NCBI GenBank assembly: GCA_965204445.1
Contig: OZ241992.1
Location: 2,369,773 to 2,433,772 of the forward strand
Length of the DNA stretch: 64,000 nt
From: Dehalococcoidia bacterium
Lineage (GTDB): Bacteria; Chloroflexota; Dehalococcoidia; Lucifugimonadales; JADFKI01
Reading direction: 5' to 3'
Part shown: piece by piece, positions 8,482 to 25,395 of the stretch
Position numbering within the stretch: the first letter of the stretch is position 1
Layout: each line of letters opens with the position of its first letter
Made by a program: the position numbers and the translations under genes
The notes under the pieces: generated by a model
Seen by the model: only the letters and a program-made list of their open reading frames with translations
What the model was told of the DNA's origin: nothing
The model's database searches: none

Positions 8482-9569
8482 TATAGCAGTCTTTCTATGA
8501 AAATCTTAGCGATCCCCGGCTGAATTCTCTCAGCCACGCGCATCGCATACCAATCCGTCATACCCGACACATAGTCCACCACCGCATCCGATTCGCTTCG
8601 GCTGCGACGGGCATAGTCCGACGGGATTTCGTCCCGATGTTCGTTGAAATGGCGATACAGCAGCCGCACAATGCGCCGCGCCGCCTCGCCCTCGGCGCGC
8701 GCGTCCTGCGGCAGATACACATTCCTGAACATATACTCCCGCAGCTCCATAAACGCCTGCCGCACCGCATCGCCCATCCCGATTGCGGGCAAAGCGTCGG
8801 GATGCGCCCCGTTCAACCCGCTCGCCGCATACGAATTCTCTATGATGTCGCACACGATAGTGTCAATGCGCTCGGCATGCCGCCCGCCCAGCGCATTCAG
8901 CGTCCCCGACGGCAGATCCGCGGGCGAAAGAACGCCGGCGCGAAACGCGTCGGCAAGGTCGTGGTTAATGTAGGCTACCGCGTCCGATACGCGCACCACT
9001 TGCGCTTCGAGCGAAAGGCCGTCGTTGTCGACCCCGGCTAGGAAATCGCCGCGCGGCTTGGAGTGCCGCAGTATCCCCTGCCGCACCTCCCAAGTGAGGT
9101 TAAGCCCCCTGCCGTCCTTCTCCACGCGCTCCACGATACGCAGGCTTTGGCGGCTGTGCCGAAACCCGTCCGGATGAAGCTTGTCCAGCTCATCCTCGCC
9201 GATATGCCCGAAAGGCGTATGCCCCAAATCGTGCGCCATAGCGATGGCTTCCGCGAGATCTTCGTTCAAGTTCAGCGCCCGCGCGATAGTGCGCGCTATC
9301 TGCGCCACCTCAAGCGTATGCGTAAGGCGCGTAACATAATGATCGCCAAGCGGCGCGATAAACACCTGCGTCTTATGCTTCAGCCGCCGAAACGCCTTGC
9401 TGTGGATAACGCGGTCGCGGTCGCGCTGATACTCCGTGCGCACATCGGACGGCCGCTCCGGAACTGCGCGCCCGACGCTGCGCCCCGACCTAGCGGCATA
9501 CGGCGAGAGACATTCCTCGCGCTCTTCAAGTCGCCGGCGTATAACCGCCCGCTGTGCCGTCGCATTCAA
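8481..9569 (-). CDS. dgt: dGTP triphosphohydrolase-like HD-domain protein
   Basis: 362 aa. HD motif 'HTLEVAQIAR...AHDLGHTPFGHIGE'. It sits in the conserved position upstream of dnaG. Confidence 0.9.
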   Translation of the reverse strand: MNATAQRAVIRRRLEEREECLSPYAARSGRSVGRAVPERPSDVRTEYQRDRDRVIHSKAFRRLKHKTQVFIAPLGDHYVTRLTHTLEVAQIARTIARALNLNEDLAEAIAMAHDLGHTPFGHIGEDELDKLHPDGFRHSRQSLRIVERVEKDGRGLNLTWEVRQGILRHSKPRGDFLAGVDNDGLSLEAQVVRVSDAVAYINHDLADAFRAGVLSPADLPSGTLNALGGRHAERIDTIVCDIIENSYAASGLNGAHPDALPAIGMGDAVRQAFMELREYMFRNVYLPQDARAEGEAARRIVRLLYRHFNEHRDEIPSDYARRSRSESDAVVDYVSGMTDWYAMRVAERIQPGIAKIFIERLL

Positions 9570-9781: not shown

Positions 9782-10531
9782 ATGGCTTGGGAAATAGGCA
9801 GCCTGTTTCTGATAATAGCCGCCGTAGCGGCAATGATCTACGGCGGCATGACGCTGACGCTAAATCAGATGAACAAGCGCTTCGACGAACTGAAAAGCGA
9901 AAACGAAGCGTTGGAAACCCGTCTCAGATCTGAAATCCAGGCATCGGAAACCCGTCTCAGATCTGAAATCCAGGCATCGGAAACCCGTCTCAGAAATGAG
10001 ATGAAGGCATCGGAAACCCGTCTCAGAAATGAGATGAAGGCGCAAAAAACCGAACTCAAAGCCGACATCCAAGCCGTCGACGCCAAAGTCACGGAATTGC
10101 GAAGCGATGTTCAAGCGCTCAACGCCAAAATTGAATCGGTGCGAATCGAACTCAAGGGCGACATTGACGCTCTCGACGCCAAAATTGAATCGGTACGCGT
10201 TGAACTCAAAGGCGATATAGACACCCTAAACGCCAAAATTGAATCGGTGCGAATCGAACTCAAGGGCGACATTGACGCCGCTAACCTCAAAATCGAATCA
10301 GTGCGAATCGAACTCAGCGACGCCATAAAATCATCCGAAGTCCGCATCAGAGGCGAAATCAACGGAGTGCGAACTGAGATAAAGGGCGACATCAAGACCG
10401 TTGAAACCCAACTCAAAGACGTAAGCGAATACGTCCTAGACGTCCACCTCAAAGTGTCCTACCTAGAAGGCTTCGCGCAAGTCCCGCGCATTGAGCGCAT
10501 CAGAGAGCCTCGCCAAGATCAGCCCGAATAA
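9782..10531 (+). CDS. membrane-anchored coiled-coil repeat protein
   Basis: N-terminal TM segment 'WEIGSLFLIIAAVAAMIYGG' followed by heptad-like repeats ('ETRLRSEIQAS' x2, 'ETRLRNEMKAS/Q' x2, 'NAKIESVRIELKGDID' x4). The ORF track starts at TTG 9773. I prefer ATG 9782, with AAGGAG at 9764-9769. Confidence 0.75.
   Translation: MAWEIGSLFLIIAAVAAMIYGGMTLTLNQMNKRFDELKSENEALETRLRSEIQASETRLRSEIQASETRLRNEMKASETRLRNEMKAQKTELKADIQAVDAKVTELRSDVQALNAKIESVRIELKGDIDALDAKIESVRVELKGDIDTLNAKIESVRIELKGDIDAANLKIESVRIELSDAIKSSEVRIRGEINGVRTEIKGDIKTVETQLKDVSEYVLDVHLKVSYLEGFAQVPRIERIREPRQDQPE
9914..10045 (+). repeat. 4 x 33-bp in-frame tandem repeat
   Basis: Units 1 and 2 (9914-9946 and 9947-9979) are identical: GAAACCCGTCTCAGATCTGAAATCCAGGCATCG. 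Units 3 and 4 share the variant ...AGAAATGAGATGAAGGC.... Confidence 0.9.
10115..10330 (+). repeat. 4 x 54-bp in-frame tandem repeat
   Basis: Units 1 and 3 are near-identical (GC.CT.AACGCCAAAATTGAATCGGTGCGAATCGAACTCAAGGGCGACATTGAC). Units 2 and 4 have diverged. Confidence 0.9.
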
Positions 10532-12834: not shown

Positions 12835-13143
12835 ATGAGCATCGACGCCACCATACAACGACTCACCCTCGAAGATATAGCTGAACTCCAAGCCTACAAA
12901 GCCGAACTAGAATCCAGGCGCGTCGACGACATCGAACCCCCACGCCGCAAAGCCCAAAAGCGCAAAGCCGCTGCCAACGAAAAGAACGGAAAGGCGCAAG
13001 ACAACCACGCCAACGGCAAGCCGCCCGACGGCGCCGCCGCCATAATCCTCTATAACGAACCCCTATCCATCGAAGAGTGGAAGCGCTCGCGAAAAACCCT
13101 AGCCCACCCCGAAAACATCCCCGCAAACGCCCGCAGCCCCTAA
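12835..13143 (+). CDS. hypothetical lysine-rich small protein
   Basis: 102-aa ORF downstream of a near-consensus promoter. No clear RBS and no domain. Confidence 0.4.
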   Translation: MSIDATIQRLTLEDIAELQAYKAELESRRVDDIEPPRRKAQKRKAAANEKNGKAQDNHANGKPPDGAAAIILYNEPLSIEEWKRSRKTLAHPENIPANARSP

Positions 13144-13144
13144 C

Positions 13145-13257
13145 CCCCTCTGCGCCCTTACACCCTTGCGCCAAAAAATCCTACCCAACCCCTTTGCGCC
13201 CCTGCGCCTCTGCGTTAAAAACCTTAGGCCAGACCCTTTGCGCCCCCTGCGCTAAAA
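13145..13257 (+). repeat. three tandemly arranged copies (d1-d3) of the TTGCGCC-type repeat
   Basis: d1 (13145-13177) reads CCCTCTGCGCCCTTACACCCTTGCGCCAAAAAA. d2 (13189-13221) reads CCCCTTTGCGCCCCTGCGCCTCTGCGTTAAAAA. d3 (13233-13257) reads ACCCTTTGCGCCCCCTGCGCTAAAA. They lie between convergent genes. Confidence 0.8.
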
Positions 13258-13276
13258 CCCGCGCGTAGAATGCGCC

Positions 13277-14467
13277 TTAAGACGCCGCGTCCGGCAGCCA
13301 TCCCCACGGACGCGGCCCCCAATCCGGCGAGTACACTTCGCCGCCCTTGACCGTCGCAATCGGCACAAGCGCCTTGTCCCCCCGCAGCGTATCGCCCTCC
13401 GTGTCGCGGAACAGCCAATCGCCCGTCTCTTCTTTAAGCACGCTAATGTCCGCCGCTCTGCCCACCGCAAGCGAACCCAGCGCATCCCGCATCCCCAGCG
13501 CGCTTGCGGGGTTCGCCGTCGCCATCCGTATCACATCCTCCAGCGAAAACCCCAGCGCCATAAACCGCGCCAGCATCTCCGTCAAGCTATGCACCGTGTT
13601 CCGCCGCCCCGGCGGCGTCATATCCGTGCTTATGCTCAGCGGACGCACTCCCTGATCCAGCGCCTGCCTTGCCACGCGAAAGCTGAAGTTCTGCCTGCCG
13701 TGCGCCGTATCCAAGAACACGCCGCGCTCCTGCGCCTCCAAAACCTCAGGGATGACCCTGCCGCCGCCGTCAATAATGCGCCCCGGATTGCCGCTGAACA
13801 GATGCGTTACGATGTCCCCGCGCTCCAGCAGCGGCAGCAGTTGGCGCGTCAGCGTCGGCCCGTCTTCGTCCACCCCCGCGATGGATCGATCGCCGATATG
13901 AACCATCAGCCGCACGCCGCCCTCGACTGCGGCGCGCTTCGCCAGCTTCACCATCTCTATGCCCATTCGCCGTACGCCCGGCCCAACCGCCCGAATCTTG
14001 ACGCCCTGAATCAGCGGCTTGTTGGCGTTGATGACGCTGATAGTTTCGTCAAGGTCGATATCCTCGCGCCGCGCTGTATCCGGCTGGTAGCTCAGCCCAA
14101 CGCGCGATATGTGCAGCATGCAGAAGATACGCGTCGCCGCCTGCGGCACAACATAGCGCGGGAAGCCGCCGAATGTGTACGCCCCCGCGCTGCCGGCATC
14201 GACTAGCGTTGTTACGCCGGAGCGCACGCCCGCAATATCGGGGTTGATGCCGTTCTGATTCACCCCCTCATACACATGCGTATGCAGGTCAATCATGCCC
14301 GGCGCCACGATGCAGCCGCTAACATCGATAACCCGCCGCGCCGTATCCGCCCCGATGTTGGGCGCAACCGCCGATATGACGCCGCCCGTTGCCGCGACAT
14401 CCAGCTTCGCCCTGACATTCTGCGCCGGGTCTATAACCTCGCCGCCCTTGAGCAACAGATCCGCCAT
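13277..14467 (-). CDS. amidohydrolase-superfamily metallohydrolase (dihydroorotase/deacetylase-like)
   Basis: 396 aa. 'LLLKGGEVIDP' N-terminus and metal-binding motif 'APGMIDLHTHVYEG'. GGAGG lies upstream. Confidence 0.85.
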   Translation of the reverse strand: MADLLLKGGEVIDPAQNVRAKLDVAATGGVISAVAPNIGADTARRVIDVSGCIVAPGMIDLHTHVYEGVNQNGINPDIAGVRSGVTTLVDAGSAGAYTFGGFPRYVVPQAATRIFCMLHISRVGLSYQPDTARREDIDLDETISVINANKPLIQGVKIRAVGPGVRRMGIEMVKLAKRAAVEGGVRLMVHIGDRSIAGVDEDGPTLTRQLLPLLERGDIVTHLFSGNPGRIIDGGGRVIPEVLEAQERGVFLDTAHGRQNFSFRVARQALDQGVRPLSISTDMTPPGRRNTVHSLTEMLARFMALGFSLEDVIRMATANPASALGMRDALGSLAVGRAADISVLKEETGDWLFRDTEGDTLRGDKALVPIATVKGGEVYSPDWGPRPWGWLPDAAS

Positions 14468-14524
14468 AGCGAAACCTCCAAGTTGTGAATGCTGTGTATC
14501 GTATGGGAACGCCCGCCATTAGCG

Positions 14525-14977
14525 TTATCCCAGGATTTCGCTAACATCCAACGCCGCATCCGGCAGCAGCGCCGGCGCTATGCGATCGCCGCGCGCATAC
14601 CGCCGCACAGCGCCATAGCCCGCCCCGACGGGATCGGACAGCCCGTCTATGTAATCCTCATCCAAGTTCACCAACCATAGTTCGGGAATGCCCGCCTCGG
14701 CGTACATCGGAGTCTTCACATCCCTATCGTACTCGACCGTGCTGTGCGAAACCTCTACTATCAGCAGCGCAATATCCGGCTCCGGCTCGGAGCGCTCGCT
14801 CAGACGGACGGGGTTCTGTACTCGGACGATTACGCGCCGCCCAAGCGTCTCCCTGAACAGCCTGTTTAGGGTATTCACACAACCCGCATGGTAGCTTCCG
14901 ATAGGCGCCATCTGAACAATCTCCCCGTCTATGAGCTCCACGCGGTCACGCGGGCTCAGAATGCCCGCCTCCGCCAT
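14525..14977 (-). CDS. Uma2-family (DUF820) putative endonuclease
   Basis: 'ELIDGEIVQMAP', 'EPDIALL' and 'VEVSHSTVEYDRDVKTPMYAEAGIPELWLVNL' match the Uma2 pattern. It is somewhat short at the N-terminus. Confidence 0.75.
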   Translation of the reverse strand: MAEAGILSPRDRVELIDGEIVQMAPIGSYHAGCVNTLNRLFRETLGRRVIVRVQNPVRLSERSEPEPDIALLIVEVSHSTVEYDRDVKTPMYAEAGIPELWLVNLDEDYIDGLSDPVGAGYGAVRRYARGDRIAPALLPDAALDVSEILG

Positions 14978-15125
14978 AAGATATTATTCCTTGACGCTGA
15001 ACCGCCGCTTTGTGATTGCCGGCGCCGGCATCGTTGTCAGTGTTGCCATATCATCCCCCTTTTGTTCTTGTTCCAACCCTGCGTTGGCTATGTCTCGAAA
15101 CGGTTCTGTTACATTTGATGGGTAG

Positions 15126-16676
15126 TTAGACGCCCAATGCGAGTTCGGGCTGCGGCGGCGTTAGGGTGCGCTCGATCGCAACCTTTCGTTCCCTCTCTAT
15201 TGGCAACCCGCGAACTAGCCCAATCAGCGCTTCGCTTTCTTTCGCGCTGGCAGTCTCACCGACTAGCAGCGCTTGGGTGCGCGTGATACGCCGCCGCGGC
15301 TCATCATCGAGCCATCCGTCCCGCCGATTGGCGCACGAGTCCGCTGATGGTGAGCGTAGCGCCCTTAGCGCCGTTGCAAGGCGAGCAGAGTATAACGCGG
15401 TTATCAATCGTGTTGGCTCCGCCGTCAGCGCGCGGCTGCATATGGTCTAGTTGCATAAATCGGATGTGAAGCTCACGCCCGCATCCCGCGCATACGCCGC
15501 CCTGCGCGGCATAGAGTATATCGCGCATATCGGCGTGGGATAGGCGCATACAGGGTTCGGATTTGCGCTGCCGCCAGTTGATGCTCGGCAGGCTAGCGCC
15601 CACATCGGCTTCGTCGTCGGTTCGCTAGGGGGGTACGGCGTGCGTGTACTGGGAACCAGAGTCGCCGCTGCAGTGTGGTGGCAGCGCCTTCCCACAAGTC
15701 GATGCCTATCCATTGGCGTTTTAGCGCTTCGGCGGCAACCAGGGTCGTGGCGCAGCCGCAGAATGGGTCAAGCACAATATCGCCTTCGTTGCTGCTTGCC
15801 TTGATGATGCGCTTGTACAAGGCAATCGGCTTTTGGGTCGGATAGCCGACTTTCTCATTTTCATTTGTCAGCGCCGATATATCGCTGAAGACATTCGTCA
15901 GCGCCACGCCTTTCGCATCGGATAGGTAGTTCTTGCGGCGGGGGATGCCATTATCATTGAAGTCAAGTAGCCCTTCCCGCTCATACCGCTCCATCGTTTC
16001 GCGCAGGAAGCGCCATTGGCGCGTGATGCCGTGAAACTCATAGACCATATTCGGGCAGTCGGCGTTGTTTTGGCGCGATGTCAGCATATAGCGCCCGCGC
16101 TCGTCTTCGTGGCGATATTGCGCGAGTTGAGCGTCCGTGATGGGCGCGTGAAGCCGATTGAAAGTCCAGTCTTTGCCTTTGGAGTACTGCAGGATGTTTT
16201 CGTAAGCCCGCCGCCACTTTCGGCGGGACAGGTTCTCAGCGGCGCGATGCCAGATGATTTCATTCTGGAAATTCGCCGCCCCGAACACGCTATCAAGCAG
16301 CGCCTTGATGTAGTGGGATGCCGTAGGGTCGCAATGCAGATACAGCGAACCCGTCGGTTTCAAAACCCGCCGCATCTCTATCACCCGCACGCCCAACCAG
16401 CACAGAAAAGCCGCCAAGTCGTCGCGCTTCTGCGTCCGCACCAGGTCGATCAACTCATAGAGCGCGGGCTGGTCGTCCTTAATGCTGTCAACCCAATCGG
16501 GATGGACGTCCTTTTCCCAACTCCAGCGGCGCCCCTGCCGCAAGGTTATCGGGCGTGGCGTGAAAGTCCCGCCCCTTGTTGAACGGCGGGTCGGTGGCGA
16601 TGAGGTCAACGCTTTCGGAGTTCATCCCGCGCAGTACGTCTAGGTTATCGTGTATGTACAGGGTTCGGTTATCCAT
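15126..16676 (-). pseudogene. decayed DNA methyltransferase (N4/N6 beta-class)-HNH endonuclease fusion
   Basis: The gene is split over at least three frames. ORF 16488-16676 has 'DLIATDPPF'. ORF 15593-16609 has 'LKPTGSLYLHCD' and 'IVLDPFCGCATT'. ORF 15304-15603 has the HNH motif 'LDHMQPRADGG...ILCSPCNGAKG'. ORF 15126-15407 carries the tail. Single-nt frameshifts lie near 16525 and 15330. It is collinear with the intact paralogue at 21776-23590. Confidence 0.85.
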
Positions 16677-16701
16677 TATTGCGCCCTTCCCATTTGTCGG
16701 A

Positions 16702-17561
16702 TTACAGCGCTGCTACATCTTCCCAACTTGTGAATGGCCGCTCTACGCCCGCGGCTTCAGCCGGCCGCTTACCCTTCAGGCTTTCGTGGGGTCGGAAATA
16801 GTTGTAGTGCGTAACTAACCGGGCAACATAGGCTTGCCCGGTCTCCCGCGATTTTAAGCCTCTCAGCGTTTTATCCCTGTCCCGTATCGTTCCCTGAAGC
16901 CGCTCGCTCAGGTTGTTGTTGATTTCTGCCCGAATGCCTTTGCTGACGACGTGTTCAACCTTGTGAGTTGGAAACGCCTGCGGCATTGCGCGGCGGTAGG
17001 AAGGCAACCTGTCGGTTTTGATTTGTTCGGGCAGGCTTTGCGCCCGTTCACGCGCAAGCGCCAACGCCGTCGCCGCGGCGCGCGTTGTGCGCTCAGGGGA
17101 CAGGTATGCCGCCAGTAGGAAACGGCTATCGGAGTCCATCACATTGAAAAGCCAATAGTTCGTTCCTCCGACATTAACCACTACTTCATCGGCAACCCAA
17201 CGTCGCCTGTGGCAACCTTCATCGGCTTGAGCGCCGAGTCCGCCTTTGCGGTCAACTCGCGAACCCATTGGTAAATGCTGACTTGCGTAGTTTCCCGCCC
17301 AAAATACTGCTTCATATTTTGCGCCGCCTTGCGATAGGACACGCCGTCAAAGTACATATCCACCGCGGCGCCCTTTTCGTGGGGAGTGGCATGTCGGCGT
17401 TGTCCGTCCGTCGGCTTTATGGGCTTGCCGCGGTCGTCAAGTTGGACAAACCGAACCGTGCCAGATGAACGGCAGGTTTGGCAAGATTGCCCAGTTTTGC
17501 GCTTGCAGTTCGCCCCGCATAGATGCCCCATTGCGGTATTATATGCTAAACTACCCAGCAA
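16702..17561 (-). pseudogene. IS6-like DDE transposase interrupted by one frameshift
   Basis: The N-terminal zinc-finger/HTH part (ORF 17181-17561) ends '...KVATGD'. The DDE core (ORF 16702-17268) continues 'RWVADEVVVNVGG...KTDRLPSY...NNNLSERLQG' in the -1 frame. No slippery heptamer is present, so inactivation is more likely than recoding. Confidence 0.75.
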
Positions 17562-17582
17562 ATGTAACAGAGCCCTCGAAAC

Positions 17583-18418
17583 GGTATTCTTAGTGGTGAG
17601 TGGTATTGAGTTTGAGCTTGGCGCAGAAGACTAGCGCAAGCAGACTCACCAGCATCTCCACGCTCTTTGCGCAGCCTTTGTCCGACGAACTAACCGATTC
17701 AACTTCCCGCGCAGCATCGAATGCAATCCTTCATTCCAGTTCACCGTCCCGTACCTCCCAACCACATGCTTGTTGACCGGCAGCGCCCCGTACATTCCGT
17801 ATGCGTCGGTCTCGTAGCGCTCCGCATCCGGCAGACGCTCCAGCAACCGCAAGAAAGTGGCTTCGTCCCTGCCCCCCACCTCAAAGTCTATCCACCTGCT
17901 CACGTCGCGCTCTTCCACCACCGCTGTCCACACCCACAGATCGTTGCGCTTTTCTTCTCTTCTAGCGCCCAAGTATGTCCACATTTCGTCAAGCGCTATC
18001 GTCAACGCAGCGATTGTCGCAGCCCGCCCGCTTGCGCGCCACGCGCTTATTGCGCGCATCCGTTCAAGCGCTATCGCCCCCCTTTTTTGACCCAGCCACT
18101 CACCGATGCAGCGCTTGCGCCCACTACGCGCGCCGCCGCCGATATGCTCGCGCCCTCTATGCGCATCTGAACCGCCTGCCGCCTGGTCTGCTCCGGGAAG
18201 CGCGGCCGCGCTGCGTCCGCCGTGTACTTCCGCTTGCAATCCCCGCACTTGTACACTTGCCTGCCGCGTGTGTGTCCGTCTTTGGGCATCCAATTGGAGC
18301 CGCAGTGGCGGCATCTAACATCGTGTCGATATGACCGCTCGCGCGCCATTAGATCGCATCCTAGATAGTAGTGGTCTGAGTGCCATTATATCTAATGCCA
18401 CTCGATTTTGTGAATACC
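17583..18418. mobile_element. IS1-family insertion sequence
   Basis: Imperfect terminal inverted repeats: GGTATTCTTAGTGGTGAGTGGTATT (17583-17607) against the reverse complement of 18394-18418, GGTATTCACAAAATCGAGTGGCATT (17/25). The internal gene organisation is InsA/InsB-like. Confidence 0.75.
17646..18349 (-). CDS. IS1-family transposase InsAB' (InsA 18071-18349; fusion by -1 frameshift)
   Basis: InsA-like zinc finger 'CRHCGSNWMPKDG...YKCGDCKRKY' plus an HTH. The slippery motif TCAAAAAAGGG (T-run at 18083-18088 on the plus strand) lies exactly where the -1 frame 'KRGAIALERMR...DEMWTY...' opens. Confidence 0.8.
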
Positions 18419-18564
18419 GTATTATCAGCACGTACAGGTGTGATAGATAGGGCAGTACGATAATTCGGACGCATCCAAGCGCGGCGGGAACGGCGCATAA
18501 AAAGGGGCAAAACGCATAGGCAGCTTCACAACCAAAGTGCGTATAAGCGTGGAGTTGAGAAATC

Positions 18565-18729
18565 CGTTGCTATTCACGCTGACAGACGGCGCGAAGCATG
18601 ACGACTCACAGGCGTGAGTAGATGGAGAGTCTCATAAGCAAGATGAAGCGTCGTTACGCGATACGATGAATTGGCGCAACGCTATCCGGCTTTATCCAGA
18701 TTGTGAGCTCACTTATATGGCTACGATGA
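18565..18729 (+). pseudogene. IS5-family transposase C-terminal remnant
   Basis: Frame-broken translation '...LTDGAKHDDSQA', 'ESLISKMKRRYAIR', 'TRYDELAQRYPA' and 'IVSSLIWLR*' resembles the conserved IS5-family C-terminus (..LADKGYDS.., ..RIATRYDKLA.., ..IRLWLR). It is internally deleted and frameshifted. Confidence 0.55.
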
Positions 18730-18881
18730 TTTGCCAACACAACTCGGAATTCCTCTGTTCTTATGATTTGAGCGCTCTTCTCTGGATTTTCGCTCAACAG
18801 CTTCGTTTGCTGCAAAAATCAATTTGGCCCCCCCCCCGTAAAGAGAAGCGCAAGCGCAACGTTGGTTGACGCGCCGCAGAG
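18721..18881 (-). other. start-less partial duplicate of the upstream membrane-protein gene, containing a G10 run
   Basis: This stretch lies directly after, and in frame with, the stop of ORF 18882-19325. It reads 'LCGASTNVALALLFTGGGAKLIFAANEAVERKSREER...', compared with 'TTVLYGGAKLIFAAKEAVEKKAEQ' in the parent gene. The homopolymer is at 18828-18837. Confidence 0.6.
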
Positions 18882-19325
18882 CTACGCATCGCCTCTATCG
18901 TCTTCGTCGCTCAGTATGCGCGCAAGCTCAGGGGTAAGGTTGCCGCTCTGCTCGAGTTGCGCGCGTATGCGCATGCGCTCTTCAGCGCGCCCTTTGGCTT
19001 GACCCTCTTCGATGCCCTGTGCGCGTCCCTTTTGCTCTGCCTTCTTTTCAACGGCTTCTTTTGCTGCGAAAATCAATTTTGCGCCTCCGTAAAGCACGGT
19101 TGTTGTGGGGAATAGCAGCAACGTCGCCAGTATAATGACGCCGGCTTCCTGTTCTGTCAAACTCTTGAGCAGACGAATGCACCACAGATCAGCACAGACG
19201 TTGCCGCATCCGTTTATCAGCACTGCTACCAGCATACTGGCGCTGATTGCCGATGAGCCGTCAAAGAAGCGCCACAAGGTTCGGTTGTCTCCCATAGCAA
19301 CGCCACCGTAGGTTTCGCTTGCCAT
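18882..19325 (-). CDS. hypothetical small membrane protein
   Basis: 147 aa with two hydrophobic segments and a charged Lys/Glu/Arg-rich C-terminus. It lies downstream of the NHL gene on the same strand. Confidence 0.55.
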   Translation of the reverse strand: MASETYGGVAMGDNRTLWRFFDGSSAISASMLVAVLINGCGNVCADLWCIRLLKSLTEQEAGVIILATLLLFPTTTVLYGGAKLIFAAKEAVEKKAEQKGRAQGIEEGQAKGRAEERMRIRAQLEQSGNLTPELARILSDEDDRGDA

Positions 19326-19395
19326 GGGAAACTGCGGAAACTGCGGAACATGCTGTCAGTCCGCCCCGGAAGCGAGCGCGCCGATTGCCGCAGGC

Positions 19396-20430
19396 TTACA
19401 GGTTGAACTGGGGCTCCATGTAGTCGTTCACCTTGTTGTATATCTGCAAGCGCCCGCGCTGCGTGTCTGCGACCAATAGGCGAGACTTGGCGGCGTCGAA
19501 GGTTACGGCTGTGGGCATTGCGAAGCGCCATTCGGGTTCGAGCGTGTACACGCGGCGGCGCGCCTTAATTACATCCACGTTGGCGTCCACCTGCTCTTGG
19601 TGCCACTTGGCGAGCTGCTGCGCGTCCCCGACGAGGCTGGCGAGGAATCTGCCGTCTGCAGCGAATACCTGCACGCGGTCGTTGCCCCAATCGCATACAT
19701 ACACATCGCCGTCCGGGTCGACCGCGACGTCGCTGGGGCGGTTGAGTTGTCCCCTGCCTTTGCCGTATTTGCCGAATGCCGCGACGAAATCGCCGTCTGC
19801 GTCAAATTTCTGGACGCGGTGATTCTTGTGGTCGGCGACATATACGCAGTCGTCGGCGTCGCAGGCGATGCCCCACGGGGCGTTGAATTCGCCTTCGTCC
19901 GATCCGAATCCTCCGAACTGCGATATGTACTCGCCGTCCCTGTTGAACTTCTGGACGCGGTGGTTCAGGCTGTCCACAACATAGACGTCGTCGTTGGAGT
20001 CGAGCGCGATGCCAGAAGGGCGGTTCAGCTCGCCATCGCCGTCGCCGGCTGTGCCCCATACGCCAAGCAGTTCGCCGTCCTTGTCGAATACGCTGACGCG
20101 GTTCATCCACTCGTCGGTGATGTACAGGTTTTCGTCGGAGTCGAGCGCAAGCCCGGCGGGCCATATGAGCTCGCCCTCTGCGTCGCCGTACTTGCTTATG
20201 CGGCCGAGGAACTCTTCGTCGTACGGCGCGGTTGGCACGGTGAACTTGTTGAGCTGGGCTGCGGTGGCGGTCTTGTTCCAGGGGACATCCAGTATCTGTT
20301 CGTACTGGCGGCTCAGCACATAGACCATATCGCCTTCGCCCACGGCGACATTTATCGGCTGGGGCATGTACAGCCCCCCGACGGCGTGGCTGAAATCAAA
20401 GGTGCGGCCTGCCGCTACGGTGGTCAGCAT
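19396..20430 (-). CDS. NHL-repeat beta-propeller protein (copy 1)
   Basis: About six repeats of 'G.F..P.GIA.D....VYV.D..N.RVQ.F'. The start is set at the internal ATG 20430 ('MLTTVAAGR'), preceded by GAGAGAGG. The longer ORF would run into the upstream gene. Confidence 0.85.
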   Translation of the reverse strand: MLTTVAAGRTFDFSHAVGGLYMPQPINVAVGEGDMVYVLSRQYEQILDVPWNKTATAAQLNKFTVPTAPYDEEFLGRISKYGDAEGELIWPAGLALDSDENLYITDEWMNRVSVFDKDGELLGVWGTAGDGDGELNRPSGIALDSNDDVYVVDSLNHRVQKFNRDGEYISQFGGFGSDEGEFNAPWGIACDADDCVYVADHKNHRVQKFDADGDFVAAFGKYGKGRGQLNRPSDVAVDPDGDVYVCDWGNDRVQVFAADGRFLASLVGDAQQLAKWHQEQVDANVDVIKARRRVYTLEPEWRFAMPTAVTFDAAKSRLLVADTQRGRLQIYNKVNDYMEPQFNL

Positions 20431-20551
20431 AGTTTTGCCTCTCTCTGTGCATGATTGGGTATGTATAGGCGGCGGGTTCGGCAATTCTGTCGAACGCCAG
20501 CGCTGCCCCCGCCGAGATTGTCGGAAGCGGCGGGGACAGAAAGGCTTTCGG

Positions 20552-21685
20552 TTAGTTTGCGATGAAGCCAACCTTCTCGAAGTCGCCGCCCACGATGGGC
20601 TTTGCGTCCATCTTCATCCAGTCTTCCACGATGGTGGAATAGACGCTGCGAAAGTCTAGGGAAGGCACAACATCGCCCTGCTCTAGGTCTTCAGCGCGCA
20701 GGGACGGGTAGTCGTTGTACTGCCCGCCGTTGACCTGGTCGCCTATGACAAGCACAGCCCCCGCCGCGCCGTGGTCGGTGCCGGAGCCGTTGTCGTGCGT
20801 GCGCCTGCCGAACTCGGAGAACAGCAGCATTATGACGTTGTCGGAGGCGTCGTGCGCGCGCAGGTCGTCGAAGAAGTCGTTGACGGCGGTGGAGAGGTCG
20901 TCCCACAGCGCCGAAAGCATATTGGGCTGGCCGGCGTGCGAGTCGAAGCTTCCGTGGTCGCAGTAGAACACGCGCGTTCCCAAATCCGCCATATGCACCT
21001 GCGCTATGCCCTTGAGCTTCTTGGCGAGCGTGGTGTCGGCGTACTCCACATCGGAGGAGTAGCGTTCCGGCGCAACCTTCAGGATGTCCGCGCCCTGCAG
21101 GGCGTCCAAACCCGTCTGTCCGAGAAATTCCATCACCGGGCCTCTGCCGATTGCCTGTCCGTATAGGCGCGAGAAGCGGTTCAGTATCTTTTGGCGCTGC
21201 TCTTCGGCGCTGATGCCGGGCATCAAGCCGTAGTTGTTCAGGTCTTCCACGCACGCCACCGGCACGCCCGGCACCGCCATAGCGCGGAACATGCTGGGGC
21301 CGAAGCTTACGCCGGTTACCACATTCTCTTTGCGCGGGTCGATCTCTTGGATGACCTTGCCGAGCCAGCCCTCTGTGCCTACGTCGTCCGGCTCGCAGGT
21401 GTGCCAGATGTCCATAGAGCGAAAGTGAGAGCGCGGCGAGTTTTCGTAGCCCACGCCGTTGATGATGGCGACGTTGCCCTGATTGTACATATCGCGGATT
21501 GCGCCCATCTGCGGATGCAGCCCTATCTTGTCGTCAAGGTGAAGCACCTGCTCTTGGGGAATGCCGACCGTGGGGCGGTTGTCGTAGTAGAGTTCGTCGT
21601 TGTACGGGATGACGGTGTTGAGATAGTCGTTGCCGCCCGAAAGCTGAACAACAACCACAACCGGATCTTTCTGCGCGGTGGTCAT
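20552..21685 (-). CDS. DUF1501-family (sulfatase/phosphatase-fold) protein (copy 1)
   Basis: 'VVVQLSGGNDYLN', 'RSHFRSMDIWHT' and 'FSEFGRRTHDNGSGTDHG' are DUF1501 hallmarks. No Tat or signal peptide is visible. GGAAGGAG RBS. Confidence 0.8.
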   Translation of the reverse strand: MTTAQKDPVVVVVQLSGGNDYLNTVIPYNDELYYDNRPTVGIPQEQVLHLDDKIGLHPQMGAIRDMYNQGNVAIINGVGYENSPRSHFRSMDIWHTCEPDDVGTEGWLGKVIQEIDPRKENVVTGVSFGPSMFRAMAVPGVPVACVEDLNNYGLMPGISAEEQRQKILNRFSRLYGQAIGRGPVMEFLGQTGLDALQGADILKVAPERYSSDVEYADTTLAKKLKGIAQVHMADLGTRVFYCDHGSFDSHAGQPNMLSALWDDLSTAVNDFFDDLRAHDASDNVIMLLFSEFGRRTHDNGSGTDHGAAGAVLVIGDQVNGGQYNDYPSLRAEDLEQGDVVPSLDFRSVYSTIVEDWMKMDAKPIVGGDFEKVGFIAN

Positions 21686-21775
21686 TTTGCTGCTCCTTCC
21701 CAGTTTTAATTTTTGGTGTATCTATCGGATGTAGAAATCGGATTGGCGTTTGATTGATTGCGTTGAAAGCGCGGC

Positions 21776-23590
21776 TTAATCGTCCATGGATGGCTGATAG
21801 CCGCGTCGAAACAGGTAGTCCATATGAAAGCGATGCGCTCGGTCTTCCATCTCCGCCAAATCAACAAGCGCGCCCATCGTGTCGACCAGCATTTCGCCGG
21901 CGTCCGCTATCTGAACGCGGTAGTCGGCGAGGTGGATGCGCTGATTGCCTTTGCGGATGTTGTGCGTGGGGCAGAGCGGCGCGCGGTTCCATATCTGATT
22001 GGAGCCGCGCTTGGACTTAGGATCCACATGGTCAAGATGGAAGTTGTTGGTAGTTTCCACAATGCTGCCGTCCGGGCGGCGGTTGGCGAAGCCGCAGCAC
22101 CACGCCATATAGCCCGACCACTCCAACAGCGTTTCAAGCATTGCCGCATTTGGAATATCGCTTGCCGGCACTTTGAACTCGCGCTCCGGCAATGCGAACT
22201 CTTTCGGGGCGGCGTCGACGATGGGCGTTGCGCGGACGGGCAATTCGTCGGGGCCGTGAACGGTTACCGTCTTGTCTTTGGTGAGCGCCGCCTGTCCGGT
22301 AACTTCGTCTTCGCAGTCGAGAACGATGAGCCGGGGCTTGTTGAACTGGCGCTTGAACACCGTCCACGCGCGCGGGTTGAAGTCGCACGCCACCCAGCGG
22401 CGGTTGAGGCGCTCGGCGGCGACGCCAGCGTATGCGCAGCCCGCAAAGCAGTCTAGCACTACATCGCCTTCATTCGTGCTTGCCTGGATGATGCGTTCCG
22501 CAAGCGCAACAGGCTTTTGCGTGGGGTAGCCGGTGCGCTCTATCGCGCGCGAACCAACCGGCTTTATATCGTCCCACAGGTTGCCCGGAACCTGCCCAAG
22601 GTTTGCGTCCAAGTAGCGCTTTAAGCCGGGCACGCCCCCCTCTTCCGGATGATGAATCAATCCCGCCGCATCCAGTGCGTCAAGTCTCGCTATTACCCCT
22701 TGGATGCTCTTGTATCCCGGGATTACATTAGCCTCTATCCAATCGGCGTAGTTCCCGGTTAGAGGGATTGCCCAGTGGCGTCCACTTCGCGCCGGAATAT
22801 GACCTTTCCACGGCTGCCCGCTTTCACCTCGCGACGTCTCTGCGCCGGTTAAATCGCCTACTCGATACCTGCCGCGCTCATCTTGGTAGCGATAGAACCT
22901 TCTGACATATTCCTCGCTCAGCGGCACCCTAACTGCGTCCGTGTTTATATTATCCTTGCCGCTGTAGAATTGTATGAAGTCTATGACGTTGCCAAATCGC
23001 CGCGCGTCGTTGTGGGCGGATGTGCGCCGCCACACGATTTTGTCGCGAGATTTGTCCTCGCCAAAGATAGCGTCCAGCAGCAAATGCAGATATGAGTCCG
23101 CGGTATGATCGCAGTGCAGATACAGGCTGCCGGTCGGCTTCAGAACCCTGTGAATTTCAATCAGCCGAATAGCCATGTAGCACAAGTACGCCGCCATGCC
23201 GTCGCTGTGGACAATCCGAGTTGCGTCTATCAGGCTGTATATGGCGGGATAGTCCGTTTCTAGGCTTTCGACCCAGTCTTCGTGAATGTCCGCTTCCCAG
23301 GACCATATATCGGTGTAGCCGCCGCGCGTTATGCCTTCCGGCCAAGTTAGCCCCTTGGCGTCGGCTTCTTGGGCGGTGTTTATGCCCCAGCTTGAGAGCA
23401 GACGCCGCTCTATCGCCAGCTCCGAATCGGTGAGCGGGGGCCTTATCCTATCACCAGTGAAAGTTTCGTTCTTGGCAAACGGCGGGTCGATGCACACAAG
23501 GTCGATGCACTCGTCGTTGAGCGCGCGCAGAAACGCTAGGTTGTCTGCGATATAGACGCCTCTGTTGACTGCATTGAAAGCGTTGGGCAT
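21776..23590 (-). CDS. DNA methyltransferase (N4/N6, beta-class)-HNH endonuclease fusion, intact
   Basis: 604 aa. Motif IV 'DLVCIDPPF', 'LKPTGSLYLHCD', motif I 'VVLDCFAGCAYAGVAA' and C-terminal HNH 'HLDHVDPKSKRGSNQIWNRAPLCPTHNIRKGN'. Confidence 0.85.
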   Translation of the reverse strand: MPNAFNAVNRGVYIADNLAFLRALNDECIDLVCIDPPFAKNETFTGDRIRPPLTDSELAIERRLLSSWGINTAQEADAKGLTWPEGITRGGYTDIWSWEADIHEDWVESLETDYPAIYSLIDATRIVHSDGMAAYLCYMAIRLIEIHRVLKPTGSLYLHCDHTADSYLHLLLDAIFGEDKSRDKIVWRRTSAHNDARRFGNVIDFIQFYSGKDNINTDAVRVPLSEEYVRRFYRYQDERGRYRVGDLTGAETSRGESGQPWKGHIPARSGRHWAIPLTGNYADWIEANVIPGYKSIQGVIARLDALDAAGLIHHPEEGGVPGLKRYLDANLGQVPGNLWDDIKPVGSRAIERTGYPTQKPVALAERIIQASTNEGDVVLDCFAGCAYAGVAAERLNRRWVACDFNPRAWTVFKRQFNKPRLIVLDCEDEVTGQAALTKDKTVTVHGPDELPVRATPIVDAAPKEFALPEREFKVPASDIPNAAMLETLLEWSGYMAWCCGFANRRPDGSIVETTNNFHLDHVDPKSKRGSNQIWNRAPLCPTHNIRKGNQRIHLADYRVQIADAGEMLVDTMGALVDLAEMEDRAHRFHMDYLFRRGYQPSMDD

Positions 23591-23699
23591 TGCCGTTGTC
23601 TCTGTAAGATAAGTTGGCTTGCAGGGAAGTTCTTGCGCTATCCAATCATAGGAATAGCCGAGAACTCCCCCGCAAGTGTCCGTCTAGTGCGCCGCGGCG

Positions 23700-25097
23700 C
23701 TATGCGTACTGATAGTCCCGGAGCGATACGATGAGCTGCAGCATTTCGCTGATCCGCATCGCGGCGAAGTCGGCATCGCCCCAAGTCAGGCTGCAGTCTA
23801 TGGCGGCGTGGTCTATAAGTTCCTGGCGCGTCTTGGGGTCGAGGTCGAGGGGACCCATCAGGTCGAGGCAGGTGTCCACGAACTCGTCGGGCGCAAGCTC
23901 GCCGGCGTCCTGGACTTTGCCCACGATTGTCTGCACGCCCGGCAGCGAGGTGTCGCCCACCAGGTCGGCCACGAAGTTGATGCGGCGCATAAGCGAGCCG
24001 CTGTTGATCCACTCGCGCCCGGTGTGCCAGCCCTCTACACTGGGCGGGTTCAGCACTTCCTGCCCCATGTATCCCATCTGCCTGCCGAGGTTGCCGATGC
24101 CGGGCGCGGGGAATTCGTGTCCGCCCACGAAGCGCAGCGTGTTGACCACAACCTCGACCGGGCTCTTGATGCGGGTGAAGCGCGCCTCTTTGAAGAAGTC
24201 GGAGTTGAACAGCACGCGCAGCACGGAGCGCATATCGTATTCGGACTCCACGAAGGCGTCCGCGAGCGTCTGAATGGCGTCGGGATCGCCGGGCGCGACG
24301 CGCTGCCATGCGGGCACCTGCGCTTCGTCCGCTACGAAGAAGTTGTACAGGTGGCGCGCCACGAAGCGCGATGTGGCGGGCTGACTGCAGATGATGTCTA
24401 TGATGTCTTCGCCGTTGAAGTTGCCCGTGTAGCCGAGGAACGACTTTTCGCCTTCGTCGTGGTCGTCGTCGCGGTACTCGAACGACCAGTCGAAGCGTCC
24501 CATCGGAAAGCGCGGGAGCTTAGGCGTAATCGTCCAGCCGGTAAAGGCGCGCGAACACTCGAACACATCGGTTTCGGTGTAGTTGCCCACGCCCATGCTG
24601 AACAGCTCCAGCAGTTCGCGGCCCCAGTTTTCGTTGGGCGCGTCGGCGTGATTTTCGTTGTTGTCGAGCCAGTAGATCATCGCGGGGTTTTGGGCGACTT
24701 CCATCAGTATTCGCTTGTAGCTGCCCATGCCCTTTTCGCGCAGCATGTCCACCATATCCAGGATTTCGTCCCAGTGGTCGACCTTGGATACGCCGGTGGC
24801 GAATATGCCGTGCCAGAAGATAGCCATCTTTTCTTGGAGCGGCGCTTTGGTGTTGACCATATGGTAAAGCCAAGTGGCGTGGCCGGTGCCTTGTATGGTG
24901 CCGGGCTTCCACGACCACGGGTGATAGCGCAGAAGCTCATACCTGTCGACCGGGGGCTGCGCTTCGGGGTTCAGCAGTTCCTCTACGGTGGCTTCGTAGC
25001 CATTGGCGACGTACGCCTCCAGTTCGTCGTGCGTCGCTCCGAATCCGGCGCGGCGCATCAGGTGCGCCATCAGCGCAATGTCATCTCGGTGGGACAT
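23700..25097 (-). CDS. DUF1800-family protein (copy 1)
   Basis: 'LMRRAGFGAT' and 'MAIFWHGIFATG' are DUF1800 hallmarks. The ATG at 25097 lies 7 nt after AGGAGG. Confidence 0.8.
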   Translation of the reverse strand: MSHRDDIALMAHLMRRAGFGATHDELEAYVANGYEATVEELLNPEAQPPVDRYELLRYHPWSWKPGTIQGTGHATWLYHMVNTKAPLQEKMAIFWHGIFATGVSKVDHWDEILDMVDMLREKGMGSYKRILMEVAQNPAMIYWLDNNENHADAPNENWGRELLELFSMGVGNYTETDVFECSRAFTGWTITPKLPRFPMGRFDWSFEYRDDDHDEGEKSFLGYTGNFNGEDIIDIICSQPATSRFVARHLYNFFVADEAQVPAWQRVAPGDPDAIQTLADAFVESEYDMRSVLRVLFNSDFFKEARFTRIKSPVEVVVNTLRFVGGHEFPAPGIGNLGRQMGYMGQEVLNPPSVEGWHTGREWINSGSLMRRINFVADLVGDTSLPGVQTIVGKVQDAGELAPDEFVDTCLDLMGPLDLDPKTRQELIDHAAIDCSLTWGDADFAAMRISEMLQLIVSLRDYQYA

Positions 25098-25395
25098 CAA
25101 TCTGCCTCCTATCTCTATCGTTCACGCCCAATCCAGGGCAGCCTCAGTAGCATATACCACCTAGCGATATGCCCGATATAATCAGCAAATCGCCGGCACA
25201 GAATTAGCCGAATCGTATTTTGTCAAGTATATGAACCAGCGGCGTCTATGTCAAACGCCTCAGCGGGCGCAAAGCGGGGCGGTTTTCGGCGAACCAAACG
25301 GCGGGCCGCTGTCTCAATTATGGCAGATTAGCGGCGCAGATCGACGCAGTTAGTAAGCGCGCGGAAGCGGCGTCCGTTAGAGGGGATGAACGCAA

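Follow-up and report, generated by a model that had tools for sequence, protein, structure and literature searches.

A decayed insertion of a methyltransferase-carrying, probably IS6-type transporter insertion sequence in a Dehalococcoidia genome

Members of the IS6 family of insertion sequences (IS) normally encode a transposase only, and a 2021 review names ISDsp3 as the sole exception (PMC7986276). This element, from Dehalococcoides sp. BAV1, is 1,456 bp long and holds a hypothetical passenger (PMC7986276); a 2019 analysis placed it on a 'solo' branch (PMC6807381). In other IS families, transporter IS (tIS) with methyltransferase passengers are recognised as a category of their own (PMC11891212, which cites Siguier et al.). 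Methylase and nuclease are also known to be united in one enzyme: the characterised Type IIC enzymes join an N-terminal PD-(D/E)XK nuclease to a gamma-class methylase, with BtgZI as an exception, in which an alpha-class methylase is combined with a C-terminal PD-D/QXK domain (PMC4081073). Here we analysed a stretch of 64,000 nucleotides from a Dehalococcoidia bacterium (contig OZ241992.1, positions 2,369,773 to 2,433,772), referred to below as the window, which contains an IS6-type element with two genes, one for a transposase and one for a DNA methyltransferase fused to an HNH nuclease. An earlier note on this DNA, made from the letters alone, had singled out the element and had remarked that IS6 members usually encode nothing but a transposase, in agreement with the review. 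Our analysis indicates that the segment is very probably a decayed insertion of a tIS from a lineage within the IS6/IS26 superfamily that is specific to Dehalococcoidia. This lineage of methyltransferase-carrying IS6-type elements in Dehalococcoidia has apparently not been described so far; a literature search, with subscription journals outside its coverage, found no description of it.

Structure and decay of the element in the window

The unit spans positions 15102-17574 (2,473 bp) and is bounded by 26-bp terminal inverted repeats that match at 24 positions (Table 1), the longest inverted repeat found by a repeat search within 14500-18500. Direct reading of the termini gave GGTTCTGTTACATTTGATGGGTAG at 15102-15125 and, as the reverse complement of 17551-17574, its partner GGCTCTGTTACATTTGCTGGGTAG, matching at 22 of 24 positions. 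The termini and the identical octamers flanking them had thus been recorded exactly in the earlier note, both in coordinates and in sequence. A degenerate 24-mer of the terminus matches nothing but these two sites in the 64-kb window and had no match in 100 shuffles. Immediately beyond the repeats lies a perfect 8-bp duplication, the target-site duplication length of IS6/IS26 elements. The ends of the element read GGTTCTGTTACATT and GGCTCTGTTACATT, with the initial GG and the G at position 7 of this family, and the first 14 nt of the cargo-end repeat agree at 11 positions with the IS6/IS26 terminal repeat consensus GGTTCTGTTGCAAA. The entire coding capacity lies on the minus strand. With two genes in 2,473 bp, the element departs from the single open reading frame (ORF) and the size of IS6/IS26 members (0.7-0.9 kb, up to 1.7 kb in the long clades). 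Its G+C content of 57.9% is near that of the window (59.9%) and therefore gives no sign of a recent import from a distant host.

When the two frames of the transposase gene were joined at GDV|WVADE, they gave a protein of 276 amino acids, which aligned from end to end with 32 intact relatives at 60-92% identity. Across these 33 sequences D115, D174, E210 and R217 (E+7) are invariant, and the N-terminal Cys4 motif (C5, C9, C17, C20) is invariant or nearly so. The halves match the IS240/IS6-type domain DDE_Tnp_IS240 (PF13610) with 58.1 bits, where the cut-off is 27. The lesion that inactivates this gene is a deletion of 1 nt between 17200 and 17199 (GAC GT^TGG). Programmed frameshifting was considered and ruled out, since a slippery heptamer is absent and the gene is a single open frame in the 32 relatives.

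The cargo gene matches first N6_N4_Mtase (PF01555, 144.6 bits) and then HNH (PF01844, 48 bits), and is collinear with intact fusion proteins of 470-550 amino acids that carry both domains in one frame. Identity in the high-scoring segment pairs is about 50-56% over the methylase body, including its variable middle, and 87-92% over the N-terminus and the HNH domain. Motif IV (DPPF) precedes motif I (DPFCGCATT), the order of the beta class. The gene ends on the minus strand in a TAA stop codon (15128-15126) that extends into the inner edge of the repeat. We located four lesions in this gene by tblastn against the homologues P0121, P0122 and P0124 (Table 1); where the cargo has lesions 2 and 3, homologues read PP[V/A]RTDDE. 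With one lesion in the transposase gene, both genes are dead. The earlier note had proposed single-nucleotide frameshifts in both genes: its positions were right, as was the 1-nt deletion in the transposase, while the four cargo lesions include deletions of 11 nt and 2 nt, and lesions 2 and 3 are absent from the note.

The same insertion is present in a different assembly (locus L088), whose corresponding region is 98.6% identical. This locus has the same junctions, the 1-nt, 11-nt and 2-nt deletions and the TAG. Hence, the insertion and its decay are real and older than the split of the two strains. Sequencing error was rejected as the cause of the lesions, which L088 shares and which lie mostly outside homopolymers. 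These observations bear out the suggestion that the element is a dead copy of a mobile unit, and dispose of the concern that its junctions might be an assembly chimera. Two differences separate the loci. Inside the transposase pseudogene, at window positions 16827-16833, 7 bp are inverted (GCCTATG in the window, CATAGGC in L088), and the poly-C run at 15628-15633 has six residues in the window and nine in L088. This difference in length is reminiscent of phase-variable tracts in mod genes, although the gene concerned had been inactivated already.

Related elements and their cargo

A protein search returned at least 858 relatives of the transposase, and a scan of a genome collection returned 158. 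Results at the level of loci rest on 79 of these 158, all 79 of which come from metagenome-assembled genomes (MAGs) of Dehalococcoidia/Chloroflexota, often many per genome. We could delimit 46 elements by their own inverted repeats; one genome, OZ242043.1, supplies 15 of the 46 and 22 of the 79 loci. The delimited elements are 1,159-3,884 bp long, plus one of 6,030 bp; for the transposase gene, about 0.9 kb of this length is enough. Their ends converge on GGTTCTGTT(G/N)CATTTGCTGGGTAG. The resulting clade consensus, GGTTCTGTTGCATT, agrees with the IS6/IS26 consensus at 12 of its first 14 nt and keeps GG and G7; these near-canonical IS6 ends begin GGTTCTGTTGCA... Perfect 8-bp duplications flank 26 of the 46, which upholds the attribution of the window element to a transposase family that makes duplications of this length.

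Several elements occur as identical copies. Three elements of 1,734 bp with a D12 methylase in one genome (L030, L031, L032) are 100% identical, as are the pairs L022/L024 and L034/L035, and each copy has its own duplication. The family has therefore been active recently and moves as a whole unit together with its cargo. Relatives of 1,159 bp that lack cargo are mobile as well, as are short derivatives resembling miniature inverted-repeat transposable elements (MITEs), which carry the same IS6-type ends; a methylase in cis is thus dispensable for movement. The MITE-like elements are non-coding and about 110-580 bp long (L006 4261-4841; L011 4655-4769; L022 13179-13615 and 13622-13790; L049 4518-4628). 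A more distant sub-group, L059-L066, has transposases of 315-421 amino acids, and its member L062 measures 1,445 bp. At L053 (7950-11173) an IS6-type element is split by a nested transposase gene of the IS256/Mutator family. Scans of JGI metagenomes gave no relatives with the methylase-HNH profile and three distant matches with the transposase profile; the latter had no match in IMG/VR, and a viral vehicle is not evidenced by that scan.

In the delimited elements, extra DNA always lies between the stop codon of the transposase and the far repeat. A passenger inside the terminal repeats that is dispensable for transposition is what defines a tIS, and cargo in this slot corresponds to it. By Pfam typing, a DNA methyltransferase is the second cistron within the repeats in 33 of the 46 elements, from at least three families, and this rules out the possibility that the repeats recur only as solo elements unrelated to methylases. 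The cargo types were N6_N4 alone; N6_N4 with HNH (the window element, L060, L047); N6_N4 with Mrr_cat (L039, L063); N6_N4 with an N-terminal extension that was read as ParB-like, for which Pfam gave methylase domains only (L020); the D12 (Dam-like) class (L008, L015, L022, L024, L030-L032 and others); MT-A70 (L033); an HTH_36 protein (L006, L009); a His-Me-finger protein (L007); and a 678-amino-acid phospholipase D (PLD)-type nuclease/P-loop protein with two small ORFs (L003, L001). For the orphan methylases among the cargo, many homologues were found in phages, at 31-43% identity.

On the transposase tree, elements with different cargo types are intermingled, and sister transposases carry N6_N4 in one case and D12 in the other. 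The closest relative of the window transposase, that of L003 (91%), is accompanied by the PLD-nuclease gene. In sister elements with different cargo, nucleotide identity falls from about 90% to background exactly at the start codon of the cargo, which in relatives lies 0-25 nt past the transposase stop codon or shares an ATGA with it. Irrespective of the cargo family, the junction takes one of two forms, 'TAA aggggcggg[at]a ATG' or the ATGA overlap, and the latter is used by D12, N6_N4, MT-A70 and methylase-HNH cargo. From the shared junctions and the drop in identity we infer that transposase and cargo form one translationally coupled operon, in which methylases have been replaced in place.

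Only one other element, L060 from another Dehalococcoidia genome, has the layout of the window element, with the transposase gene followed by a methylase-HNH gene inside perfect 24-bp repeats. Its nucleotide identity to the window element is 81% in the transposase and 85% in the cargo. The start codon of its methylase-HNH gene overlaps the transposase stop codon as ATGA, and the cargo is frameshifted. The methylase-HNH cargo is on the same strand as the transposase in the window and in L060, and on the opposite strand in L047. The search for other copies that the earlier note had called for thus succeeded. Its picture of a spreading methylase-nuclease module gains from this second insertion and is still weakly borne out, with two independent insertions only (window/L088 and L060), both dead.

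Two further arrangements of the slot were observed. L003 (387-4270) and L001 (from 4964 to the contig end) have the closest transposase relatives, at 89-91%, and their 678-amino-acid protein combines an NgoFVII-like PLD nuclease domain with a P-loop/helicase-like domain. This cargo may be a small defence module in the same slot; on non-methylase cargo, PADLOC gave only a weak ZacB match, for this PLD-nuclease/NTPase protein. The element L007 (7959-10493) has two extra internal copies of the right-end repeat, a perfect one at 9813-9836 and a degenerate one at 9481-9504, directly after the His-Me-finger gene. Possibly, segments were added stepwise past an older end, which would offer a clue to how cargo is captured.

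The methylase-HNH family and the surroundings of the insertion

Methylase-HNH proteins form a family with more than 8,000 homologues, several per genome. Close relatives are about 90% conserved in the N-terminal catalytic region, the C-terminal S-adenosylmethionine motifs and the HNH domain, and residues ~143-262 are hypervariable. A confident structure model of the homologue P0122 (mean predicted local distance difference test score 82.5) had its best matches among EcoP15I Mod and other Type III Mod subunits and small beta-class methylases; none of these matches was a solved structure spanning the whole methylase-HNH architecture. Type III Mod subunits, the nearest in fold, have a central target-recognition domain. 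By analogy, the model and the pattern of variability predict a single-chain restriction-modification-like enzyme, in which the middle domain would set the target for both activities.

Members of this family also stand free of the element. P0122 itself (538 amino acids, 67-70% identical to the cargo) is encoded at L086 5001-6617, between a ferredoxin-type nuoI-like gene and nuoJ/nuoK; this locus in an NADH-dehydrogenase operon has neither transposase nor IS6-type repeats, and the gene looks like an invasive free-standing one. In the window, an intact paralogue of 604 amino acids, 31% identical to the cargo, lies at 21776-23590 on the minus strand, with genes for DUF1501 (20552-21685) and DUF1800 (23700-25100) proteins on its two sides; IS6-like repeats are absent from its vicinity. 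Most of the paralogue is bracketed by a direct repeat of 18 nt (21754-21771 and 23565-23582, 16/18). At L087 (5001-9566) two methylase-HNH copies are interleaved with Uma2-family ('putative restriction endonuclease') genes. Inspection of the flanks of free-standing methylase-HNH genes found no IS6-like ends, homing-event repeats or target motifs.

In the immediate surroundings, an IS1-like element occupies 17583-18419, with an InsA-like zinc-finger/helix-turn-helix (HTH) ORF at 18071-18349 and an overlapping DDE_Tnp_IS1 ORF at 17646-18314; the minus strand encodes both. The repeats of the IS1-like element are imperfect and begin GGTATTC, and no duplication was seen for it. One of its ends abuts the right copy of the duplication, which puts the insertion point of the IS6-type element directly next to an IS1 terminus. 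The neighbour on the other side is a Uma2 gene (14525-14977), about 117 bp upstream of whose start codon the insertion took place.

A hexamer resembling a -10 box precedes the transposase gene, and the arrangement TATAAT-N6-ATG recurs in L002. It is a putative promoter that might give a leaderless or near-leaderless mRNA. The hexamer was read by eye; a consensus scan for promoters and terminators found nothing above shuffles and no full -35/-10 site. An Rfam search of 13000-25000 gave no match. In the repeats of D12-carrying elements, GATC was sought by eye and none was seen; the specificities of the methylases are not established.

Table 1. Coordinates of the features of the element in the window
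Feature	Position	Strand	Remarks
Target-site duplication, left copy CTCGAAAC	15094..15101	no strand	identical octamer at 17575-17582
Cargo-end terminal inverted repeat (right repeat, IRR, in transposase orientation) GGTTCTGTTACATTTGATGGGTAGTT	15102..15127	minus	complementary at 24/26 to 17549-17574
Passenger pseudogene: beta-class (Type III Mod-like) N6/N4 DNA methyltransferase, C-terminal HNH nuclease and helical tail	15126..16676	minus	
Cargo lesion 4	15330..15331 (about 15330)	minus	2-nt deletion; homologues GLVR-A-NKRDGW
Cargo lesions 2 and 3	15625..15633	minus	frame break in poly-C run (15633-15628) and in-frame TAG (15627-15625), in the methylase-HNH linker
Cargo lesion 1	16526..16529	minus	11-nt deletion; CCGC left where homologues have AAGA-RFQDR-WSWE
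Transposase-cargo spacer, 25 nt, GGGAAGGG	16677..16701	minus	purine-rich, Shine-Dalgarno-like
Transposase pseudogene: IS6-type DDE enzyme, N-terminal Cys4 zinc motif and HTH	16702..17531	minus	PF13610, NCBIfam, alignment
TATAAT, -10-like hexamer 6 nt upstream of the transposase ATG	17538..17543	minus	read from sequence
Transposase-end terminal inverted repeat (left repeat, IRL) GGCTCTGTTACATTTGCTGGGTAGTT	17549..17574	minus	repeat search and shuffles
Target-site duplication, right copy CTCGAAAC	17575..17582	no strand	abuts end of IS1-like element

Interpretation and comparison with known systems

In the course of events that we propose from the sequence, the transposase would bind both repeats and insert the whole 2.47-kb unit by the copy-in route of IS6 elements, forming a cointegrate that host recombination would then resolve. 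In the window, the insertion would have landed 8 bp from the end of the IS1-like element. A promoter in the repeat next to the transposase gene would drive both genes as one operon, and translation of the cargo would be coupled to that of the transposase. The methylase-HNH protein would act as a one-chain restriction-modification-like enzyme whose variable middle domain sets the DNA target of both activities, and such a cargo would make the element hard to lose and protect the DNA that carries it. The orphan methylases of sister elements are more likely to serve as anti-restriction or self-protection cargo, as in phages.

Several observations weigh against the assignment to an IS6/IS26-type tIS. 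The transposase falls marginally short of the NCBIfam model transpos_IS6 (NF033587), with 121.9 bits and a cut-off of 125; the runner-up, IS481, scored 55 bits. With the closest annotated IS6 transposases, those of the ISCpe7 group, it shares no more than about 31% identity, and in the view of Harmer and Hall transposases of such length may fall outside IS6/IS26 proper (PMC6807381). No perfect duplication flanks 20 of the 46 delimited elements, which is compatible with copy-in cointegrates and not diagnostic of them; swapped flanks, the signature of intramolecular copy-in or of recombination between copies, were sought among the duplication-less copies, and no pairs were found in those sampled. 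The empty site, which would read ...GGCTATGT CTCGAAAC GGTATTC... in the absence of the insert, was not recovered by exact-protein look-up of the flanking amidohydrolase, which gave no record. Finally, all five methylase-nuclease cargos (window, L060, L047, L039, L063) are frameshifted or truncated and no intact unit of the window type was found, whereas many orphan methylase cargos are intact, in numbers that are small. Broken nuclease cargos fit counter-selection of the nuclease after insertion, or simply a greater age.

The other explanations of the locus account for less of the evidence. A 0.9-kb IS6-like element might lie by chance beside a resident methylase-HNH gene, with the far repeat and the duplication as coincidences. 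Such genes are indeed common in these genomes, yet the 24/26 repeat does not recur in the 64 kb and was never matched in the shuffles, the 8-bp flanks are identical, no repeat copy separates transposase from cargo, L060 shows the same architecture elsewhere and 45 other delimited relatives keep further genes inside their repeats; we consider coincidence hardly credible. Just as hard to believe is an IS26-style pseudo-compound transposon with the cargo between two IS copies. This is the usual way in which IS6-family elements transport passengers (PMC7986276), but the window has a single transposase gene and a single pair of repeats, with the cargo between transposase and far repeat and no internal repeat copy. 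That the junctions are chimeric, or that the frameshifts are homopolymer errors of long reads in intact genes, is very unlikely. The relatives do come from long-contig MAG assemblies and the poly-C run differs between the two assemblies. Against this stand the junctions and lesions common to window and L088, the nature of the 11-nt and 2-nt deletions and of the stop codon, which are not homopolymer errors, and the intact housekeeping genes nearby (DnaG, RpoD and others).

Somewhat more can be said for the methylase-HNH gene as a selfish, nuclease-driven (homing-like) invader of the slot between transposase stop codon and far repeat, for which the IS was merely the landing site. Its free-standing relatives occupy sites of an invasive type (between nuoI and nuoJ in L086, between DUF1501 and DUF1800 in the window, among Uma2 genes in L087), and as cargo it is found in both orientations relative to the transposase. 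However, the same slot, with the same ribosome-binding-site or ATGA junction, holds nuclease-free methylases of three families that are incapable of homing by cleavage; the ATGA overlap in L060 is what would be expected of an integrated second cistron, and neither flanking repeats nor target motifs of homing were found at the free-standing copies. We regard homing as improbable. Taken together, the evidence favours the decayed tIS insertion. A bolder extension of it holds that the methyltransferase cassette is a working part of the transposon life cycle, exchangeable and coupled to the transposase in a Dehalococcoidia-wide lineage: methylation might gate transposition, or might shield the cointegrate or a newly invaded replicon from restriction. 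If this were true, the repeated replacement of N6_N4, D12 and MT-A70 at one junction would reflect selection for methylation itself. Because the methylase is not required in cis, we hold such functional coupling to be rather doubtful.

On its own, the copy in the window has small practical consequence, as a dead relic that records earlier traffic of mobile elements, here beside an IS1-like one; the pattern in the wider lineage is the more interesting outcome of this work. The lineage would provide a very small vehicle (1.4-2.7 kb) able to move epigenetic marks and restriction-modification specificities within and between genomes of an abundant, mostly uncultured class. Natural non-orthologous replacement at a fixed operon junction would make the question of why mobile elements carry orphan methylases a testable one. 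In addition, the combination of a Mod-like beta-class methylase, a variable recognition domain and a C-terminal HNH is uncharacterised and widespread, and could yield new single-chain restriction-modification enzymes.

These predicted enzymes resemble the Type IIC/IIG systems in having methylase and nuclease in one polypeptide with a variable target-recognition region, and Type III in their EcoP15I Mod-like fold. They differ from Type IIC/IIG in the type and order of the nuclease and in the class of the methylase, being a beta-class methylase followed by a C-terminal HNH, and from Type III in having no Res-type helicase.

Among mobile elements, ISDsp3 shares with the lineage a Chloroflexota host, extra length, an 8-bp duplication, long repeats (28/36) and an internal passenger (PMC7986276; PMC6807381), and in size it resembles the distant sub-group around L062. 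Published accounts describe ISDsp3 as a single-copy element that has one hypothetical passenger and lacks an intact zinc finger, whereas the lineage is multi-copy, has a conserved Cys4 motif and carries mostly methyltransferases; the two are set apart here by description and not by sequence. With the short elements IS26 and IS257 the lineage has in common the DDE_Tnp_IS240 domain, 8-bp duplications and ends that begin GGTTCTGTTGCA..., compared with GGTTCTGTTGCAAA. Those elements are 0.79-0.88 kb long, with one ORF for a transposase of ~234 amino acids that has no zinc motif, and their cargo travels only in pseudo-compound transposons, with an IS copy on either side, unlike the internal cargo here; a tblastn search of 72,556 plasmids gave no IS26 match at E <= 1e-5. 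The nearest annotated transposases, at ~31% identity over 77% of the protein, are those of ISCpe7 and ISCbo1 in the Clostridial 'long' IS6 clade (VII/h), which likewise have an N-terminal zinc-finger extension and 8-bp duplications. These elements are 1.2-1.3 kb in size and passenger-free, with transposases of 340 amino acids and ends that rarely start with GG (PMC6807381), and the lineage described here has canonical ends.

In summary, we class the element as one that works like an IS6-type tIS, while strict membership in IS6/IS26 holds for the ends, the duplication and the catalytic domain only. Known tIS such as IS220 (IS1380 family) are likewise IS-sized, with a gene unrelated to transposition inside the terminal repeats; they are isolated examples and belong to another transposase family, whereas the present lineage has interchangeable methyltransferase cassettes at a fixed and, as judged from its stop/start arrangement, probably translationally coupled junction. 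The reputation of IS6/IS26 elements rests on the resistance genes that they move between two IS copies, and here a whole lineage carries its cargo inside a single IS.

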